This document shows positions 37,174 to 53,952 of a stretch of 63,073 bases of DNA, piece after piece. The translations under genes and the position numbers were made by a program. The stretch covers positions 1 through 63,073 of IMG/VR virus record IMGVR_UViG_3300043449_000393. One strand, given 5' to 3'. Position 1 is the stretch's first letter. Every line of letters begins with the position of its first letter. A model generated the notes under the pieces. That model was not told where the DNA came from, made no database searches, and saw nothing but the letters and a program-made list of their open reading frames with translations. Source of the DNA: a virus (Duplodnaviria > Caudoviricetes).

Positions 37174-37428
37174 TCAGCACTTCCACGCACGCAACGACTT
37201 GTTGATGCGGCTGTTGGGGTCGTTGGCAGTTTTGGCGCTGGTCAACTTCTCCTTCATGCCTTCCATTCTGGCACAAAAAGAGTCCTTGCGGGGACCACCT
37301 TCGGGTTGAGGAGCCTTGAGTCCCGGCTTGCCGGGGTTAGCTTTATTGTAGGAGGCACGCCCTTTGGCGTTGAGCCCACCCTTGGGGTCTTTGCCTTCTT
37401 TGCGTGTCCATGCAGGTGTCTTAGCCAT
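37174..37428 (-). CDS. Small basic conserved phage protein (DUF6321-like)
   Basis: GGLNAKGRAS, SFCARM, SRINKSLRAWKC. Confidence 0.75.
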   Translation of the reverse strand: MAKTPAWTRKEGKDPKGGLNAKGRASYNKANPGKPGLKAPQPEGGPRKDSFCARMEGMKEKLTSAKTANDPNSRINKSLRAWKC

Positions 37429-40400
37429 TAGATTTGCTCCTCAACGAATCGTTTGTTTGCCTTGTTGAACTGTACACCATCAACGACTTGCCGCTCACGC
37501 TTGGCTTGAGACTGTGGAGCCTTAAGCAATTCAGACAGTGGTTGGCGAGTGTAGCCGTTCTTGACTCTGGCTTCCTGCAGCTTTGCCCACGCATCGCGAG
37601 CTTCAGCCGTAGACTCACCAGCGCGGATGGCCTTGATGTAGTCAGCCTTGACCTTGGTAGACCGGTCTTGGTAGAACTGGTTCATCTCCAGCGTGTTCTG
37701 CTGGCGTTCCATTATCACGGACTGCTGGACTGGCTGAATACCCATGGCCTGCACAACAGCTTCCCAAGCACTGACCTCCGACGCTGGCAGTACTATGTCA
37801 CCGTTACGGCGTGTCATTCCTTGCGTGGAAATGCGGTAAGCCTTGGCGGCGTCACCCAGACCCTTGGGGAGAACTTGCTCCATGCCCTTGTACCATTCAC
37901 CGCTGAGCATCTGGCCGAGGCCGTCAGCCACACGAGCGGCCATACCAACTGGAGCGCCGCCCAGCAAAGTACCAGCAGCCTCAATCACGCCGGACTTGGT
38001 AGTCAGGTCAGCTTGGCTGAACGGCATGATGGACAGCATGTTGCCTGCGCCCACTTTGCCAGAGATGTCCACACCAGCCAGCGTCGGAGCACCGCGCATG
38101 ATCAAGTTGGCCATGTCCTCGTCGCCGATAAACTTGCGCAACTCAGCTGTGACATCCAATGGATCGTCGTCATCACCGAACAGAGCTCCGATAGCCCAAG
38201 CAATCGCGGAGTAGCCGGGCAAGCCCATGGCACCAGCCAGCAATGCAGTGTGGCCAAGTGAGTAGGCCAGAGCCTTGGTAGCTGCGAGTTTTTCTTTGCT
38301 GTCAAAGCCAGCGTCCTTGAGCAGCTTGGCGTAGTACGTCAGCTGAATCAACTGGAACTTGCGGAACTGCAACGCCACCTTGCCGACTGGATTGTTGAAG
38401 AATCGTGGGGCGTTGAACGCCGAGTAGTCACCATGGGTCTCAGTCAGGATGCGGTCAGCGTAGTTGATGGCGGCTTCTTTGTCACCAGTCTTGGCCAACT
38501 CCAAACGGTATGCAGCCATGGCTGTGGACAAGCGGTTGATAGATTCAACCTTCTGCACGGCAACACGCAAGAACTTATCGACCTTGTTCCAGCCTTTGCT
38601 GAACGCGCTATCGCCGTCGATCTTGAACTCGCCCAGTTCGGTCTCCAAGCCAATGTCGATCTTGCCTCGATTGGCCAGCTCTTGGATGGCGTCGCGCACG
38701 TCGGCAGGAACCTTGCTAAAGTCAAACTGCTGGTCGTACCGAGCAGACTTCATAACGTTGCCCAGCTGGCTGTACGCTGTGAACAACGCAGTGGAGGTCT
38801 TGGTGTAATCGTGGCGACCGGCCATGGCTGGAACCGACATCATCCAAGGCTGTGTCAAGTTCTGCATGTAGTACGCAGGGCTTGTGGCCAAGAAGTAGAT
38901 CGAGCTTAGGCGCGTGACCTTGCTGATAGCTGGAATAGGCTTGACGTCCAACGATGAGTCGTATCGGCGCGTGATCTCATTCAGAATTTCTGACTTGCGG
39001 TTCAAGTCACCGCTGCCAGCGTTTTCCTCTTTGCGCATGGCCTGAATCACGTCTTGCACCTGTGGGTTGTACTCCACGGACGCCACGAAATTGGCATCAG
39101 CGCGACCCTGAGAGGCAAACGAGCGCAGCATGTCGATCTCACCAGACACACCACGGCGACGCATCTCTGACTTACGAGCGCTACCTTCGGCCAAAGCCTG
39201 CAGGTACATGTCACTGACCATGCGTTGAATCTGAGCTGCGCCTTTGTCGCCAGCGTTGGCCTTGGCGTCTGCCATAGCACGCAGTCGGGTAATTGCGCCA
39301 AGTGAGTCACGGCTACCGAACAACTCTTTGTCAGCAACAGAACGCTCTTTGAACGCAACCGTGCCGCCGTTAAAATGGCCTTGGGCGGTCAACTGGTCTG
39401 CCAAATTGCGAGCTTCATTCTTGGTCTCAGTGAAACTCACGTGGTAGTGGTCTGGGTCTTTCTCCAGACGAGACAGCAGTTTAGTGTCGTTGGCAGCCTT
39501 GGCAGCAATGTACTCTTTGGACTTGGCCACAACAACATGGTCGCCGAAGCGCTTGATTGGAGCGTACGGGATGCCCTCACGAATCTTGAACAGTCGAGCA
39601 AATCGCTTCAGGTCGTTGGCCTTCTCTTTGACCAACTTGGCTTTCTTCAGTGGATCAGTCTCGGCGGCAATGCGAGCGTCGTACTCGGATGTGGCGTAGT
39701 CCACCACAGCCTTCTTCTTGGCCGACAACATCTTGTCACCGTGGGCAAAGATAGCCTTGGCATACGCTTGAGCCTTCGGGCCCAGTGCGTTGAACATCGC
39801 AGCCATCTTAGGGTCAGCCTTAAAGGTGCCCTTGTCGTAGCCCCACTTGCCGGTGCGGGTGGACTCAAAGAGGAACTGGTTGACGCTGTTGGGGCCGTCG
39901 CCTTTGTTGGCTTCTTCGATGGTTGCGTACATGTCAGCAACGCGCTCGACTTCGCGCTCCAAGGAACGAGCCTTGGTATCACGCTTGGCCAACAGGCTTT
40001 CAAACGTAGCGGCAGACTTGATGCCGACATCCACAGCTCGCTTGATGAGATCGCTGGTAAACACCACGCGGTCCAAACCCTGACGAACCCAGTCGCCGAT
40101 GGTGTTGATGCTGTCACTCACAGGCTTTTGGGCCTGCTCAGGCAGCTTGGAGACGGCCTTGTTTACTTGGGCTTGTCGGCTGGCTCGAGAAACTGCGCCA
40201 ACAGGCTGCGTGCCTTGCTGTCCAGCTTGAACTTGTCCTGACTGAGCACCTTGCTGGGCACCTTGGGCGCGTTGGTAGTTTGTGGCTTTGACTTGTTCAT
40301 GTGCTTTCTCCATAAAAGCGTGTGTTGCTGGCAGGTTATCACGGAGGAAATCCATGCCGCCGTTCATGTTTGAGAAAGCCCACACCTGTGCAAAGACTTC

Positions 40401-43400
40401 CTCACGCAGTTCTTGCATAGTCAACGAGCGGTTCTCTGCATCCGACATGTCGAGCGGATAGTTAAGCAAATAGCCGATGGGCGAAGTTTCGCTGCTGTCA
40501 TCAAAGTGGTTCAGGATTTCGTCCATAACGGAACCGGGGCGCAGGGCCAACAGCTCGCCGTTAACACGAGAGACCTTGAACTCCTTGTCGTTAGAGAACT
40601 TACCAGCGCCGCCCTCAACAGCGTCGATGCCATGACCGACTTCGTGGAGCGTAGCAACGGTCGCCAGCTGCTTGTCCTTGAGAATCAAGCCGTTATAGAT
40701 GATGGTGCGTTTGCCGTCAATCACGGTGTAGAGTGCGTCCCACTTTACAGGAGAGAACGTAACCATCCAAGAGTCAATGGCATCAACAGCGTTGCCCATG
40801 CCCATGTTCTGCAACCCACGGATACCGGCGGCAATACCTTCGGAATAGCCCGACAAGTCGTCGAGCGAAGCCTCAACGGACTCAAACTCAGTCCCGCTCT
40901 GGTCAGCAGTGCGGACGCTACGACGCGACTTACGAGCAAACTTGGTCAACTCAGTCTCAACGTCAGCCTTGGTCCAGTTGCCTTCACCGAAGCCGATGAA
41001 TGTGTTCTGCTGAGCCTTGGTCAGGTCAGCGAACTTGGGAGCTTGCGGATACTCAGAAGCGACTACATCCCACGCTTGGGCTGCTTGCTCGGCTTGAGTA
41101 AGGATGACGCTTGGGGCTTGGGCTTTACCTTCTGCGGCAGGCTTTTTGACACGCCGTACTTGTCCGCCCACTCCTTTGCCAGTTTCGGCTTCTGGCTGAA
41201 CAGATACGCTTGTTGGGCTTTTGACTTGAACGGCATTGGTTTTCTCCAGTTTGGCCAGTTTGACGGACAGCTCTTTGGTCTGTCCGCTTTGGAACGCCAC
41301 AGTCACCGTGGTCGCATCGCCATCACCGGCAAAACTCTTGACCACACCAGTACCCAGCTTGGGGTTCATAACGGTGTCGCCAACAGCCAGACCTTTGCGA
41401 TCAGCTTCCAGCTTGGCAGCACGCTCAGCGCGGAACTTGGCAGCCTCAGCTTCTTTGGCAGCGTCTTTTTCCTCAGCAACCACTTGAGCAGCTTCAGTCT
41501 TGGCTTTGCCTTTCTTGCGCTCACCTTTTGTCTTGGTAGCGTTGGCCACCAGAGCTTCGTATTTAGCGGTCAGGCTTTCAATTTGTTCAGCAGCCGCAGC
41601 AGCGGCTTGTGGCAGATTCAGCTGTTGTAGCTCTTCGGCAGCAGTTCGCAGTGCATCAATAGAGTCAGCAATGGCCACCAGATCGACGGCCATTTGGCTA
41701 CCAGCGGTACTGGCTTTTTGCCATTCGCGGGCGTCGTCCATGGTCGAGAACGCTTCACCAGCCTCGCCCTCAAACCCCATGTCCTTCAGCGCAGCGGCCA
41801 AGTCGCCGGATTCGATATTGCCTTTGACGCGATCAATTTGCTCGCTGAGCTCGGACATGCGATCAATATCAGCCTGAGTTGGCTTGCCCTTGGACTCAAG
41901 GCGGCTCAGTTCGCCTTCCAACTTACCCAGTTCGGTAGCGGCTGCTTTTTTGGCAGACTGAATGCCGAGGCTATCAAACACTTGGCTGCGGTCAAACCCC
42001 ATGGATGTCGCAATGTTTGCGAGCAACTCAGGGTTGCCGATCTGTCGCACACGAGACTCTGCAATACCAAAGGACGCAGCGATCTCCTTGGCAATGTTGC
42101 CTTTGTACCCTTCGGGCACAGACCGACGCGCCGTGATGTAGGCGTTCAAGATTTGGCGGTCGCGCTCTTTGTCTTTGGATTTAGACAGGTGCTGCTCGAT
42201 AACAGCTTCCAAGTCGTCCGCCGTAAAGTCAGTCTGGTTGCCGCGCAAGCCAGCTTCGTCTTCCAACACAGCATCAATGCCACCAGCGTTGCCGGTCATC
42301 CGGGCAATGTCAGCGATGTTTGTGATGTCAGTCTCGCCGGGCAGCTTTTCCTGCTTGGGCAGACGCAGAGTCGTGTTGGGCTTTATCGCAGGGGCGGCAC
42401 TTGGGACGGTGGTTGTGGTTTGTCCTTGCGGCGCTGTTTGGATGGTTTGAGAGGCTTGAGTGCCACTTGGGGCTCCAGTAGTTACAGTGGTAGTCGGTTG
42501 GCCGGGGGTGACTGAAAGAATGCCAGCTTCTCGAAGTGGGGCTCCAGTTGTTGGGGTAGCTCCAACCACCGCTCCTGCGACAGGAGCAGCTGGTCCTGCA
42601 TTTCCCACAGTTCCTTGAACGTCAACGCCCCCGACTCCCACGCCTCCTGCAGGCTGCTGTACAGTAGAAACTCCTGTGCCACGTGGACTCCTTGCGCGGA
42701 TGATTTCACCGACTGCCTTACGGGCGTCGACAAGCTTACTACTGGCCAGAGCATTCAGAACAGGCTCAGCTTCTGGCGAAGCAGGATCAATGCCCTTGGA
42801 CACCATGTATTCATAGATGCCGCGAGTACTCTTGGTAGGCTTGATGCCGTGGCCGTTGAGCTCCTCATCCAGTGGACTGAAGATCGAAGGCGCAGCGGGC
42901 TTGGTTTCCGCAGCAGGTGCGGCGGCGGTAGGAGCAACCTCAGCAGGCGTAGCCGCAGGCGCGGTCAGGTCTGTCTCTTGACTGAGAATGGTCGGTGTTA
43001 CCAGCGATGACCCAGCGTAAGCCCCACCAAGCAAATTGGCGTTTGCGTATGGGCTGCCCATCAGCGAAGCTGTATCCAGCCCGGTCAGGGTTCCAGTTCG
43101 TGGCGCTGGAGCTTGTTGCTCCGTGCTTGTGTCTGGCTGGGTCAAGTCAATTTGACCCGACTCAGGGCGTGGGGCTCGAATACCACCAACGCCGCCCATT
43201 AAGCCGCCAAGAGTAGCTCCGCCTACGAACGAGTCCAAATAGCGTTTGTTGGCCTCCTCATTGAACAGTGTCTCGTTGGGGTTGACCGCCATACGACCGG
43301 CGTACTGGTTGATCATTTCTTGGCCGGTTTCGCCAAGGCTTTCGCCCACCGTACCTTCAGCAATTCCAGTGGCTACGCGGCGACCAATACCAGCTTCGCC

Positions 43401-44087
43401 CCGAATAAGTGGTCGCAGGCCACGAGCTGCCATACCCTCAACGCCAACAGCATTTAACGCAGCATAGGGGATACCGCCGAGAGCTGCGGCTCCAAGGTTT
43501 TCACCGCCAGCTTCGCGCTGAGCAGACAGGATGTCACCAACTGCACTGGGATAGCTAGCACCGACAGCACCTGCGGTAGCGGCAGCAGCGCGGCCAAGAC
43601 CCATTCGAGCCGCAGTACCGCCCAAAGCCAAACCGCCAGTCAGACCGCCAGCTACAGCCTCGCCAAGATATGGAAGCGACTGGGCAGCTAGACCACCGGC
43701 ATAGTTAAGGGCGCTGCCAACACCAGTAATGTCACGCCAGTCTTCAACGCCACCGAGCTCACGGGCGCGTTGAGCCGCATAGGCAGCGGCACTTTCATTA
43801 GCAGCACGACGTTGGTCAAACGCTGCGGCTGTGTCCTCCGCACCAACACCTCGAGCAATAGCTCCGCCAAGGCCGAGCAGGTTAGCTTGGTACTGGTCAA
43901 TGCCAGCAGAGATACGACTGCCTGTAAGACCGCGCTTAGCGCCCCCATACCCTATTTCAGCTGCGTAATCGTCTAGTGAAGGGTAGTAGCTTTTGTACTG
44001 TTGGAAGGTGCTTTGCAGAATATCTTCGTCAGTGAGGTTTTCAAGACCGCCATTGGCTTTACGAATATCTGCAATGGAACGTGGCAT
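37428..44087 (-). CDS. Giant polyvalent internal virion/ejection protein, 2219 aa
   Basis: Last of three ejection-type genes; Gly/Ala hydrophobic N-terminus, HTH, Tudor-like domain, HEVGH metallopeptidase, PLxRFG-like YAPIKRFG, conserved helical C-terminus. Confidence 0.85.
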   Translation of the reverse strand: MPRSIADIRKANGGLENLTDEDILQSTFQQYKSYYPSLDDYAAEIGYGGAKRGLTGSRISAGIDQYQANLLGLGGAIARGVGAEDTAAAFDQRRAANESAAAYAAQRARELGGVEDWRDITGVGSALNYAGGLAAQSLPYLGEAVAGGLTGGLALGGTAARMGLGRAAAATAGAVGASYPSAVGDILSAQREAGGENLGAAALGGIPYAALNAVGVEGMAARGLRPLIRGEAGIGRRVATGIAEGTVGESLGETGQEMINQYAGRMAVNPNETLFNEEANKRYLDSFVGGATLGGLMGGVGGIRAPRPESGQIDLTQPDTSTEQQAPAPRTGTLTGLDTASLMGSPYANANLLGGAYAGSSLVTPTILSQETDLTAPAATPAEVAPTAAAPAAETKPAAPSIFSPLDEELNGHGIKPTKSTRGIYEYMVSKGIDPASPEAEPVLNALASSKLVDARKAVGEIIRARSPRGTGVSTVQQPAGGVGVGGVDVQGTVGNAGPAAPVAGAVVGATPTTGAPLREAGILSVTPGQPTTTVTTGAPSGTQASQTIQTAPQGQTTTTVPSAAPAIKPNTTLRLPKQEKLPGETDITNIADIARMTGNAGGIDAVLEDEAGLRGNQTDFTADDLEAVIEQHLSKSKDKERDRQILNAYITARRSVPEGYKGNIAKEIAASFGIAESRVRQIGNPELLANIATSMGFDRSQVFDSLGIQSAKKAAATELGKLEGELSRLESKGKPTQADIDRMSELSEQIDRVKGNIESGDLAAALKDMGFEGEAGEAFSTMDDAREWQKASTAGSQMAVDLVAIADSIDALRTAAEELQQLNLPQAAAAAAEQIESLTAKYEALVANATKTKGERKKGKAKTEAAQVVAEEKDAAKEAEAAKFRAERAAKLEADRKGLAVGDTVMNPKLGTGVVKSFAGDGDATTVTVAFQSGQTKELSVKLAKLEKTNAVQVKSPTSVSVQPEAETGKGVGGQVRRVKKPAAEGKAQAPSVILTQAEQAAQAWDVVASEYPQAPKFADLTKAQQNTFIGFGEGNWTKADVETELTKFARKSRRSVRTADQSGTEFESVEASLDDLSGYSEGIAAGIRGLQNMGMGNAVDAIDSWMVTFSPVKWDALYTVIDGKRTIIYNGLILKDKQLATVATLHEVGHGIDAVEGGAGKFSNDKEFKVSRVNGELLALRPGSVMDEILNHFDDSSETSPIGYLLNYPLDMSDAENRSLTMQELREEVFAQVWAFSNMNGGMDFLRDNLPATHAFMEKAHEQVKATNYQRAQGAQQGAQSGQVQAGQQGTQPVGAVSRASRQAQVNKAVSKLPEQAQKPVSDSINTIGDWVRQGLDRVVFTSDLIKRAVDVGIKSAATFESLLAKRDTKARSLEREVERVADMYATIEEANKGDGPNSVNQFLFESTRTGKWGYDKGTFKADPKMAAMFNALGPKAQAYAKAIFAHGDKMLSAKKKAVVDYATSEYDARIAAETDPLKKAKLVKEKANDLKRFARLFKIREGIPYAPIKRFGDHVVVAKSKEYIAAKAANDTKLLSRLEKDPDHYHVSFTETKNEARNLADQLTAQGHFNGGTVAFKERSVADKELFGSRDSLGAITRLRAMADAKANAGDKGAAQIQRMVSDMYLQALAEGSARKSEMRRRGVSGEIDMLRSFASQGRADANFVASVEYNPQVQDVIQAMRKEENAGSGDLNRKSEILNEITRRYDSSLDVKPIPAISKVTRLSSIYFLATSPAYYMQNLTQPWMMSVPAMAGRHDYTKTSTALFTAYSQLGNVMKSARYDQQFDFSKVPADVRDAIQELANRGKIDIGLETELGEFKIDGDSAFSKGWNKVDKFLRVAVQKVESINRLSTAMAAYRLELAKTGDKEAAINYADRILTETHGDYSAFNAPRFFNNPVGKVALQFRKFQLIQLTYYAKLLKDAGFDSKEKLAATKALAYSLGHTALLAGAMGLPGYSAIAWAIGALFGDDDDPLDVTAELRKFIGDEDMANLIMRGAPTLAGVDISGKVGAGNMLSIMPFSQADLTTKSGVIEAAGTLLGGAPVGMAARVADGLGQMLSGEWYKGMEQVLPKGLGDAAKAYRISTQGMTRRNGDIVLPASEVSAWEAVVQAMGIQPVQQSVIMERQQNTLEMNQFYQDRSTKVKADYIKAIRAGESTAEARDAWAKLQEARVKNGYTRQPLSELLKAPQSQAKRERQVVDGVQFNKANKRFVEEQI
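40163..40300 (-). CDS. Nested +1-frame ORF D, 45 aa, basic
   Basis: GGAG-N7-ATG; MNKSKPQTTNAPKVPSKVLSQDKFKLDSKARSLLAQFLEPADKPK. Confidence 0.55.
   Translation of the reverse strand: MNKSKPQTTNAPKVPSKVLSQDKFKLDSKARSLLAQFLEPADKPK
41063..41236 (-). CDS. Nested +1-frame ORF C, 57 aa, MPFKS-type small basic protein
   Basis: GGAG-N7-ATG; MPFKSKAQQAYLFSQKPKLAKEWADKYGVSKSLPQKVK... Confidence 0.75.
   Translation of the reverse strand: MPFKSKAQQAYLFSQKPKLAKEWADKYGVSKSLPQKVKPKPQASSLLKPSKQPKRGM
42383..42466 (-). CDS. Nested +1-frame ORF B, 27 aa, basic
   Basis: GGAG-N6-GTG; MALKPLKPSKQRRKDKPQPPSQVPPLR. Confidence 0.5.
   Translation of the reverse strand: MALKPLKPSKQRRKDKPQPPSQVPPLR
42482..42682 (-). 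CDS. Nested +1-frame ORF A, 66 aa, acidic and helical
   Basis: AAGGAG-N5-GTG; MAQEFLLYSSLQEAWESGALTFKELWEMQDQLL... Confidence 0.65.
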   Translation of the reverse strand: MAQEFLLYSSLQEAWESGALTFKELWEMQDQLLLSQERWLELPQQLEPHFEKLAFFQSPPANRLPL

Positions 44088-52874: not shown

Positions 52875-53492
52875 CTAGGCCAGATTGTAATTGGGATCAC
52901 CGAACAGGGCCAGAGCTTGGTTGGTGTGCAAAATGCGGTCGTTCAGGCCGATCGTGCCGCCGTTGATCTTCTTGGTCAGGGCAAGGTTGTTACCCGACTC
53001 GGCAACGGCATTCAGCTTCTGCGTGCTCCAGAAATACCCTGCCGTCAGGGCGGCGTACTGGGGCGTGGCCACTAAGTCGGGCTCCATGATGAAGTCGATG
53101 CCCAGCGCCTTGCCTGCGTGGAAGTAATTTGCAGAGCCTGTCAGCTGGATGCAACCTCTGCCCCTGAACCGGAACCCGTCACCCGACGCCTCATCACGGT
53201 TTCCCATGCGGTTGGCGTAGACAAAGTTGGCGATCTTCTTGGGGTTGCGCTCAAACGTCTTGGCGAACTCCAGCGTCGGAAAGCGCTTGGGCCAGAGCTT
53301 CACCAGCGTCTCGGCGCGGTAGTTCAGGTTCTCCTCCAACACGCGAAAGTTGCCGCACTCGTGGCCACACTGCCCGATGAAAGCGGCTTGTTGGCGTGGC
53401 GTCAGGATGCCGAAGCGCTCAAACGTCTCGTTCAGGGGGTCGACCCACTTGGGGTCGATATGCAGTTGTTTGAGTTGGCTAGCGTTGACCAT
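52875..53492 (-). CDS. Endolysin, glycoside hydrolase family 19
   Basis: AAFIGQCGHE, ENLNY, FRGRGCIQLTG, TKKINGG-GL-DR. Confidence 0.92.
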   Translation of the reverse strand: MVNASQLKQLHIDPKWVDPLNETFERFGILTPRQQAAFIGQCGHECGNFRVLEENLNYRAETLVKLWPKRFPTLEFAKTFERNPKKIANFVYANRMGNRDEASGDGFRFRGRGCIQLTGSANYFHAGKALGIDFIMEPDLVATPQYAALTAGYFWSTQKLNAVAESGNNLALTKKINGGTIGLNDRILHTNQALALFGDPNYNLA

Positions 53493-53952
53493 TCACAATG
53501 CTCCTCATTTCGTCATAGGCTGCGATGCAGGCGTTGAGCTGGTTGATGGCCCGGTCTCCGTCGGCTGCGATCTCAGCAATAAGGCGGAGAGTCTCTCGGT
53601 CAGATTCGCTTGCCGCTTCTGGGCTATTTCCGGGGGCAGGGGCGGCACTTGGGCTGGCTTGTACACAACTGGCGGTGGGGAGGCGCACCCGGCCAGCAGC
53701 AATGAGGCGATTGAGATCAGTTTGTTTCTTAGCGACATCGGTGTTGGCCTTTCTCAGCTCTTCGTCTTTGGACGCGACGGCCTTGGCCATCTCCTGCTCT
53801 TTGGTGCGTGCCTCGTCGTTCTTTCGGGCAATCTCCACCTGCATCTGAGCATCACGCTCGTACCAGCCGTTGTGGTGACCGTAGAAGTACGACCCTAGGC
53901 CAATGACGAGCGCACCCGTCGCGGCCCATGGGAGCGGCACGCCAAACATCAC
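53479..53952 (-). CDS. Rz: Inner-membrane spanin (Rz-like)
   Basis: N-terminal TM, coiled coil, GRVRL, GDRAINQLNAC. Confidence 0.8.
   Translation of the reverse strand: MMFGVPLPWAATGALVIGLGSYFYGHHNGWYERDAQMQVEIARKNDEARTKEQEMAKAVASKDEELRKANTDVAKKQTDLNRLIAAGRVRLPTASCVQASPSAAPAPGNSPEAASESDRETLRLIAEIAADGDRAINQLNACIAAYDEMRSIVNGQR
53505..53738 (-). CDS. Rz1: Outer-membrane spanin lipoprotein embedded in Rz
   Basis: Signal peptide with lipobox LLAGC, Pro-rich, alternative frame inside Rz. Confidence 0.8.
   Translation of the reverse strand: MSLRNKLISIASLLLAGCASPPPVVYKPAQVPPLPPEIAQKRQANLTERLSALLLRSQPTETGPSTSSTPASQPMTK

Follow-up and report, generated by a model that had tools for sequence, protein, structure and literature searches.

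Four candidate genes overprinted in the +1 frame of a giant virion-protein gene from a 63-kb phage

Can one giant phage gene carry four others inside it? The complete viral record IMGVR_UViG_3300043449_000393 (Caudoviricetes; 63,073 bp, hereafter the window) encodes on its minus strand, at 37428-44087, a predicted giant mosaic virion protein of the polyvalent type in an open reading frame (ORF) of 2219 codons. A reading of this DNA from its letters alone, hereafter the sequence-only reading, had pointed to four short ORFs within that gene, here called A to D, each led by its own Shine-Dalgarno (SD) sequence, and had proposed that linker stretches of the giant protein double as genes for small proteins. 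The question raised by the locus is whether these ORFs are genes or accidents of composition. Our answer, given with considerable confidence, is that A to D are genuine genes, written over the giant gene in its +1 frame and each presumably initiated independently on a shared late mRNA. For A and C at least we regard this as nearly certain; that all four are real genes we consider probable, A and C being better supported than the other two.

Four reading frames nested in a giant gene

All four ORFs lie wholly inside the giant gene, on the same strand and in the +1 frame relative to it, with frames, SD sites and spacers exactly as had been claimed. ORF A (42482-42682, minus strand; 66 amino acids) starts with GTG at 42682, five nucleotides behind an AAGGAG at 42693-42688, and its stop codon ends at 42482. 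Fifteen nucleotides past that stop lies the start of ORF B (42383-42466, minus strand; 27 amino acids), a GTG at 42466 that is separated by six nucleotides from a GGAG at 42476-42473; the stop ends at 42383. ORF C (41063-41236, minus strand; 57 amino acids) opens with ATG at 41236, has its GGAG at 41247-41244 with a spacer of seven nucleotides, and ends with its stop at 41063. The same spacing of seven nucleotides separates the GGAG at 40311-40308 from the ATG at 40300 of ORF D (40163-40300, minus strand; 45 amino acids), whose stop ends at 40163. The nested genes occupy three junctions of the giant protein: A and B come after the N-terminal module, C directly after a Tudor-like module, and D after a module with an HExxH motif.

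The predicted products are diverse. Their isoelectric points, 4.4 for A and 11.8, 10.4 and 10.1 for B, C and D, agree with the earlier description of them as mostly basic, A being the acidic one. Three helices are predicted for A, which has a conserved C-terminal N-x-L-P-L (structure model with a predicted local distance difference test score, pLDDT, of 65), and two N-terminal helices followed by a disordered K/P/S/Q tail are predicted for C (pLDDT 74), in which 14 lysines and arginines stand against two acidic residues in 57 amino acids. ORF B is rich in proline and lysine, with the core LKPLKPSKQ[RK]RKDK, and D contains an invariant KVLSQD-FK core. No paralogues of A to D were found elsewhere in this genome, and a DNA search of the nested region against a phage collection gave no match.

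We compared the observed ORFs with those that arise when synonymous codons are shuffled, a check that the sequence-only reading had proposed. The rule used (GGAG, a spacer of five to eight nucleotides, ATG or GTG, and at least 25 amino acids) was set after the ORFs had been seen, so the P values that follow are optimistic. Four ORFs in the +1 frame of the giant gene obey the rule, none in the +2 frame and none internally in frame 0. Across 2000 shuffles the mean number in the +1 frame was 0.52 (P of four or more = 0.0015), and when shuffling was confined to blocks of 100 codons it was 0.79 (P = 0.004); the four observed thus exceed a null expectation of 0.5-0.8. Codon usage gives a second view of the single sequence. 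Scored with the phage's own codon table, eight of 217 fifty-codon windows favour the +1 frame over the main frame, and all eight sit on nested ORFs: five on A, two on C and one on D. The score of B is about equal in both frames. The claim that the nested frame uses the codons usual for this phage is therefore borne out for A, C and D, with B neutral.

Selection acts on the nested frame

For comparison we used 22 related viral loci, which were fetched with six peptide patterns from the main frame. No pattern lies in a nested stretch, and the set is therefore independent of the nested ORFs. The giant frame is open across all four nested ORFs in 22/22 of these loci, with the homologues of A to D in the +1 frame. 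A scan of all 2219 codons in 20-codon windows was made on a codon alignment guided by the main-frame protein, and for that reason carries no selection bias. Outside two places the third position of the main frame is the most variable (diversity approximately 0.4-0.67). Only at amino acids 461-530, which correspond to A, and 941-990, which correspond to C, does main position 1, which coincides with the wobble base of the +1 frame, exceed position 3. The diversity of main position 3, about 0.6 elsewhere, collapses to 0.04-0.21 over A and 0.04-0.17 over C. B and D are not flagged in this all-sequence alignment because the region is mosaic. In a subset alignment of seven loci, position-3 diversity is 0.00-0.13 over codons 5-49 of D versus 0.2-0.6 in the flanks, and in a subset of 19 sequences the variability of position 1 exceeds that of position 3 as far as codon ~25 of B. 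The suppression of main-frame synonymous variation that the sequence-only reading had anticipated is thus seen over A and C in the full set and over B and D in the subsets.

Substitutions counted on trees show the same phasing. Fitch steps on FastTree trees at nested positions 1, 2 and 3 number 62, 50 and 143 for A (P versus flanks 6e-22, from contingency tests as are those that follow), 18, 20 and 44 for B (P = 5e-6), 51, 57 and 91 for C (P = 2e-6), and 11, 13 and 22 for D (P = 3e-4); in the flanks, it is main position 3 that has the highest count in 6/6 cases. The ratio of nonsynonymous to synonymous substitution rates (dN/dS, Nei-Gojobori) in the nested frame is 0.22 for A, 0.28 for B, 0.29 for C and 0.32 for D, compared with 1.62, 1.24, 1.31 and 0.75, respectively, in the main frame over the same stretches. 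The relation is reversed in the flanks, where dN/dS is 0.13-0.46 in the main frame and 0.80-1.43 in the +1 frame. Main-frame values above 1 reflect a depressed dS and not positive selection.

Initiation and termination sites are conserved as well. A start codon is kept in 21/21 copies of A (as GTG, TTG, or an ATG or GTG one codon upstream), 19/19 of B, 23/23 of C (ATG) and 8/8 of D (ATG), and the GGAG is kept in 21/21, 11/19, 22/23 and 8/8 copies, respectively. The GGAG of C persists amid upstream sequence that differs between loci. ORF A is 66 amino acids long in 20 of the sequences that reach it and 53 in one, with the L-P-[LV] end retained. In-frame insertions and deletions were also considered as evidence and were rejected, as the host frame forces multiples of three anyway.

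With the phased variation, the dN/dS ratios and the tree-based steps at the +1 wobble position in agreement, the nested frame, and not the main frame, is under purifying selection in the nested stretches, as the sequence-only reading had held for the linkers. Selection would act on the nested frame because the giant protein needs merely an open and flexible inter-domain linker there. By position, by their own SD and start codons and by selection, A to D can be classed from comparative sequence data as putative embedded out-of-frame overlapping genes, with D, represented by eight sequences, the weakest case.

Several points weigh against this conclusion. Given the main-frame protein, the probability that the +1 frame is open by chance is 0.11 for A, 0.96 for B, 0.04 for C and 0.28 for D, so that openness of this frame counts for little on its own; open runs of 50 codons or more number 17 in the +1 frame of the giant gene, and the shuffle rule was chosen post hoc. 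The sequence pairs behind the dN/dS values are non-independent, and the proportion of synonymous differences in the flanks is near saturation (0.5-0.7). The subset, dN/dS and Fitch alignments were made of loci with a tblastn match to the nested peptide, which biases B and D somewhat; A and C are unbiased by that choice because every locus reaching those regions matched. The SD core of B is absent from 8/19 copies, B is only 24-28 amino acids long in this clade, and it gave no tblastn match in two loci (L007 and L014) that both carry A. For D the position test on its own eight sequences has P = 0.11, the main-frame dN/dS of 0.75 means that both frames are constrained, and D is absent from 2/8 loci with a 3'-complete giant ORF (L013 and L015). 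In 13 further loci without a D match the sequence ends ahead of the end of the giant ORF, and these are uninformative for D. Finally, no family or fold match assigns a function to the nested products, and the models of A and C are of only moderate confidence (pLDDT 65 and 74).

Relatives of the nested genes and competing explanations

Relatives of the nested peptides were found in other phages, as a search against phage proteins suggested by the sequence-only reading would have it. A profile of ORF A matched 22 called proteins. Among 1.84 billion cluster representatives (50% identity) it picked out 32, and 28 of these have a length of 66-71 amino acids. The family shares the motifs GALS, EAW, QD and the C-terminal NxLPL. 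Two sub-alignments served to retrieve divergent A loci, and in 33/33 of them A sits in the +1 frame of a giant ORF, at host codon ~480-595. All 33 start with ATG, 32 of them at the aligned codon and one (L138) a codon upstream, and 32 read MSA; the main frame over these copies is unconserved and rich in G, A, P and V. The A family is thus nested in every copy seen (54/54). ESM Atlas returned only 'hypothetical protein' clusters for A, and Foldseek found no match for the A model in the PDB at E<=0.001, a result of little weight for a model with pLDDT 65.

B-like +1 ORFs follow A in 20/33 of the divergent A loci, with an SD of the AGGAGA type and in a longer form of 40-60 amino acids. The C-terminus of the long-form B proteins (L113-L134, e.g., L124:6478-6609) reads C-[KL]-[IV]-L-N-[LV]-P-D and that of A proteins N-x-L-P-[LAV]; the N-x-(L/V)-P present at both termini might be a docking tail that the two proteins have in common. 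ORF B of the window is without the long-form C-terminal tail. Diverged D-like +1 ORFs occur in 3/33 of the same loci (L106, L108 and L110; 43-45% identity), and among 5.8 billion protein clusters D has only four called relatives, as expected given that gene callers cannot call a nested gene.

ORF C belongs to a larger family. It matches phrog_1375 (function unknown) weakly (E 2e-4), and its profile recovers 213 database proteins of 27-105 amino acids at E<=0.01, most of those listed having 39-69. Common to the family are the pattern MPFKSxAQ...P..A(K)...LP and a basic tail. ORF C itself has the N-terminal M-P-F-K-S-x-A-Q, the conserved P17, A20, K21 and L33-P34, a length within ~40-65 amino acids and the basic tail; it thus shares with the MPFKSKAQ... 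family (phrog_1375) the N-terminal motif, two short helices, the LP motif, the tail and the +1 nesting, and differs in being one of four nested genes. A search of IMG/VR with the N-terminal pattern returned at least 600 stretches, of which 324 are confirmed C relatives. Among the best 80 loci, C is nested in the +1 frame in 31, in the +2 frame in none, apparently free-standing in 45 and antisense to a long ORF in four.

The 31 nested copies fall into two settings, 20 being in giant ORFs open for at least 1248 amino acids and 11 in acidic proteins of ~400 amino acids. The latter hosts are very acidic, come from AT-richer phages and carry C at codon ~42-57 (L035, L036, L037, L049, L051, L056, L082, L085, L090, L098 and L105). 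This ~400-amino-acid host has no PHROG match in the L035-type contigs; by eye only, it looks scaffold-like. Against annotated phages, tblastn of C found 68 Flavobacterium Elemovirus records and MW202828, in which the match always lies under a giant 'structural protein' coding sequence. In both records opened (MT497067.1, our L024, and MW202828.1, our L025) the homologue is in the +1 frame of the giant coding sequence (offsets 3661 mod 3 = 1 and 2596 mod 3 = 1) and is unannotated, which supports the earlier claim that gene callers miss such nested genes. Judged from the feature column, the nested C is unannotated in all 69 matching phage records.

Free-standing copies of C lie ~10 nucleotides past the stop of a giant ORF (L038, L073 and L089), between portal and scaffold (L059) and after the large terminase (L063), and in Streptomyces phage Vorvolakos a remote C-like gene, also free-standing, is directly ahead of the holin. 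A fused form of the family also exists, as the C motif is the in-frame N-terminus of a 361-amino-acid ORF at L057:6001-7086. At L110:7030-7113 a C-like nested ORF stops after 27 residues while similarity runs past the stop, and this may be a decaying copy.

Searches for a function of these products were negative within the resources used. PADLOC and NCBIfam gave no matches, and profile searches of PDB sequences with alignments A5 and A4 gave none at E<=1. No Pfam or NCBIfam model covers the C family: of six members compared with Pfam, five had no matches, and the sixth, P0017, had three far below cut-off. A match of ORF C to the Pfam phage terminase small subunit (PF10668) was rejected, since its 17.8 bits fall below the cut-off of 22.

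How else might four such ORFs arise? Linkers rich in A, G, P, T and Q rarely give +1 stops, so that the ORFs could be non-functional shadows with an SD and start by accident; a +1 frame whose openness is expected by chance over B and is not rare over D and A, the 17 long open stretches in that frame and a post hoc SD rule all speak for this. Chance nevertheless leaves unexplained the main-frame synonymous collapse and the substitutions that, precisely where the ORFs lie, move to the wobble base of the +1 frame, the nested dN/dS of 0.22-0.32 with conserved starts and SDs, the families with hundreds (C) and dozens (A) of members, and an observed count of four where shuffles give 0.5-0.8. For A and C this explanation is already contradicted, and overall we hold it to be extremely improbable. 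A nucleic-acid element could instead be what is conserved, either an RNA structure that controls how the giant mRNA is translated or 'linker' DNA at which modules recombine more readily. Such an element would suit the position of A at a module boundary, where at least five unrelated N-termini among the 22 loci precede an A that is 67-86% identical, and conserved junctions would favour module shuffling. The variation is three-periodic, however, and phased on the +1 frame with start and stop codons conserved; relatives of A at ~32-45% identity keep protein-like motifs in diverged DNA, and C occurs as a free-standing gene. We therefore think an element of this kind highly improbable as the explanation; promotion of recombination may be a side effect of the conserved islands.

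Frameshifting would also place ribosomes in the +1 frame, yielding truncated variants of the giant protein that end in the A, C or D peptide. Phages provide examples of frameshift isoforms in T7 10A/10B and lambda G/GT, SD-like sequences can stimulate frameshifting, as in prfB and dnaX, and for some codons ahead of each start no stop interrupts the +1 frame. Conservation nonetheless begins at the start codon, with upstream +1 dN/dS of ~0.8-1.25, a start is present in every copy (21/21, 19/19, 23/23 and 8/8, and 33/33 for divergent A), and the free-standing genes of the C family start with the same MPFKS. From conservation and start codons, then, we judge frameshift isoforms very unlikely. A last alternative concerns what the products do: the cationic B, C and D could be lysis peptides of the 'disruptin' type, like phiKT gp28, which is described as a cationic amphipathic peptide of 56 amino acids and net charge +7 that replaces spanins (10.1101/515445). 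Size and charge are akin (57 amino acids with 14 basic and two acidic residues for C), as is the general character of a small, strongly cationic, helical, late-expressed phage peptide, and the C-like gene of Vorvolakos is the one directly ahead of a holin. Yet gp28 has no sequence similarity to the C family (hhalign probability 0.2% in a profile comparison), other free-standing C genes are in head-morphogenesis positions, and the window phage comes with an endolysin and with Rz/Rz1-like spanins of its own, an embedded pair with a lipobox, and so has no need of a disruptin. We consider this role unlikely. Independently initiated, overprinted genes remain our preferred reading of A to D.

Host gene, possible origin and known parallels

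The host gene is the last of a minus-strand structural operon, with tail fibres, an internal virion protein and a virion structural protein as its neighbours. The C-terminal third of the protein (amino acids ~1430-2218) matches PHROG 10089, 'DarB-like antirestriction' (8.6e-55 over amino acids 1503-2176), and by tblastn this region is 23-28% identical to annotated PLxRFG/DarB-like giant proteins of ~60-kb phages. With the structural-operon context, these matches fit the gene to the polyvalent or DarB-like class of giant virion proteins, its location in the virion being predicted. The sole Pfam match in the rest of the protein is a sub-threshold Tudor-like one at amino acids 902-949, to the PcrA/UvrD Tudor domain PF21196 (window 41241-41384, minus strand; 17.7 bits, cut-off 23.9). 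This match ends five nucleotides ahead of the ATG of ORF C, and the codons of its final residues form the SD of C. In the close relatives L002-L023 the giant proteins begin with at least five unrelated N-terminal sequences and the nested A just downstream stays 67-86% identical, so that A marks a boundary in a mosaic gene, either between modules or of recombination.

The host protein here is akin to the polyvalent proteins known from phages and from conjugative elements (Iyer et al., 2017; PMC5512222) in being giant, multidomain and virion-type, with a weak Tudor-like match, an HExxH module and a DarB-like/PLxRFG C-terminal region. Genes nested in linkers are no part of that concept as presented there: the terms 'overlapping', 'linker' and 'low-complexity' have 0 occurrences in the text covered by a term search.

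How the nested genes would be expressed follows most simply from their layout. No sigma-70-like promoter was found upstream of A to D inside the giant gene, so internal initiation on the late mRNA is the simplest reading: ribosomes would start independently at each nested SD and start codon on the message of the giant gene, as they do for Rz1 within Rz. The products would then be accessory proteins made late for the head or for ejection, one acidic and helical and three small and basic. Judged by gene context only, that of late genes in head or ejection-protein neighbourhoods, they are probably small proteins that lie inside the head or accompany ejection, or else helpers of assembly. The roles put forward by the sequence-only reading (chaperones, DNA-condensing peptides or regulators) are guesses.

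The several settings of C hint at how such an arrangement could come about. C is seen free-standing, just past the stop of a giant ORF, and nested, which suggests that giant genes grew by fusing across it; C at least may be an older gene, once late and free-standing, that was engulfed as its neighbours became one through out-of-frame read-through. When the giant protein was compared by tblastn with the 80 C-family loci, only seven close relatives proved homologous; this gave no homology between the genes beside free-standing C and the domains beside nested C, and the fusion model is drawn solely from gene order. A broader version is possible, though we hold it only tentatively: in ~60-kb uncultivated phages the linkers of giant genes would hide a whole layer of genes as scars of fusion, separate late genes having been joined across small intervening genes that stayed functional in the other frame. 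A together with B would in this version be a dedicated partner of the giant protein, for example its loading or packaging adaptor or its chaperone, and if so a single transcript would govern the supply of both the host protein and its helper.

Genes nested out of frame are in themselves well known. Those on the same strand in phages are for the most part isolated examples, like Rz1. The giant gene studied here has four, all with clear comparative signs of selection, and hundreds of viral contigs as well as one cultured phage genus show the pattern again. What is new is the set of tests of A, B and D, the nesting of the A family in 54/54 copies and the gene-order evidence for fusion. Full-text literature searches, in a limited library, found no paper that describes nesting within giant virion genes or polyvalent ones. 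Because the usual annotation pipelines do not permit one call inside another, the A, B and D families and many copies of C are missing from protein databases or rare in them. Four concrete small proteins, presumably made alongside an ejected giant protein, become nameable targets. The growth of giant polyvalent proteins may in part have taken the route suggested by C, in which neighbours fuse across a small gene that survives in the other frame. In phage engineering, recoding or codon-optimising such a giant gene would silently destroy four others.

Two classical systems bear comparison. The B gene in A and the E gene in D of phiX174 are the textbook overprinted genes of small viruses, usually viewed as de novo births in tiny genomes. 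A to D resemble them in that one DNA stretch encodes two proteins in different frames under asymmetric constraint; they differ in that the genome is 63 kb and at least C looks like an older free-standing gene read across by a growing fusion gene. In lambda Rz/Rz1, a small gene lies wholly inside a larger gene of the same strand, in the +1 frame, with its own SD and start and over a tolerant part of its host. A to D share this embedded architecture. Their host, however, is a 2219-amino-acid virion protein and not a lysis protein, nested and host products are not known to be functionally linked, and there are four nested genes per host gene instead of one. The possibility that A to D are themselves Rz1-like o-spanins was rejected, as none of the four has a cysteine or a lipobox.

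The same genome contains a textbook nested spanin pair of its own. The lysis cassette at 52875-53952, on the minus strand, comprises a GH19-like endolysin (52875-53492, minus strand), an Rz-like i-spanin with an N-terminal transmembrane segment (53479-53952, minus strand) and an Rz1-like o-spanin with the lipobox LLAGC (53505-53738, minus strand), the last wholly embedded in the +1 frame of the Rz-like gene (214 mod 3 = 1).

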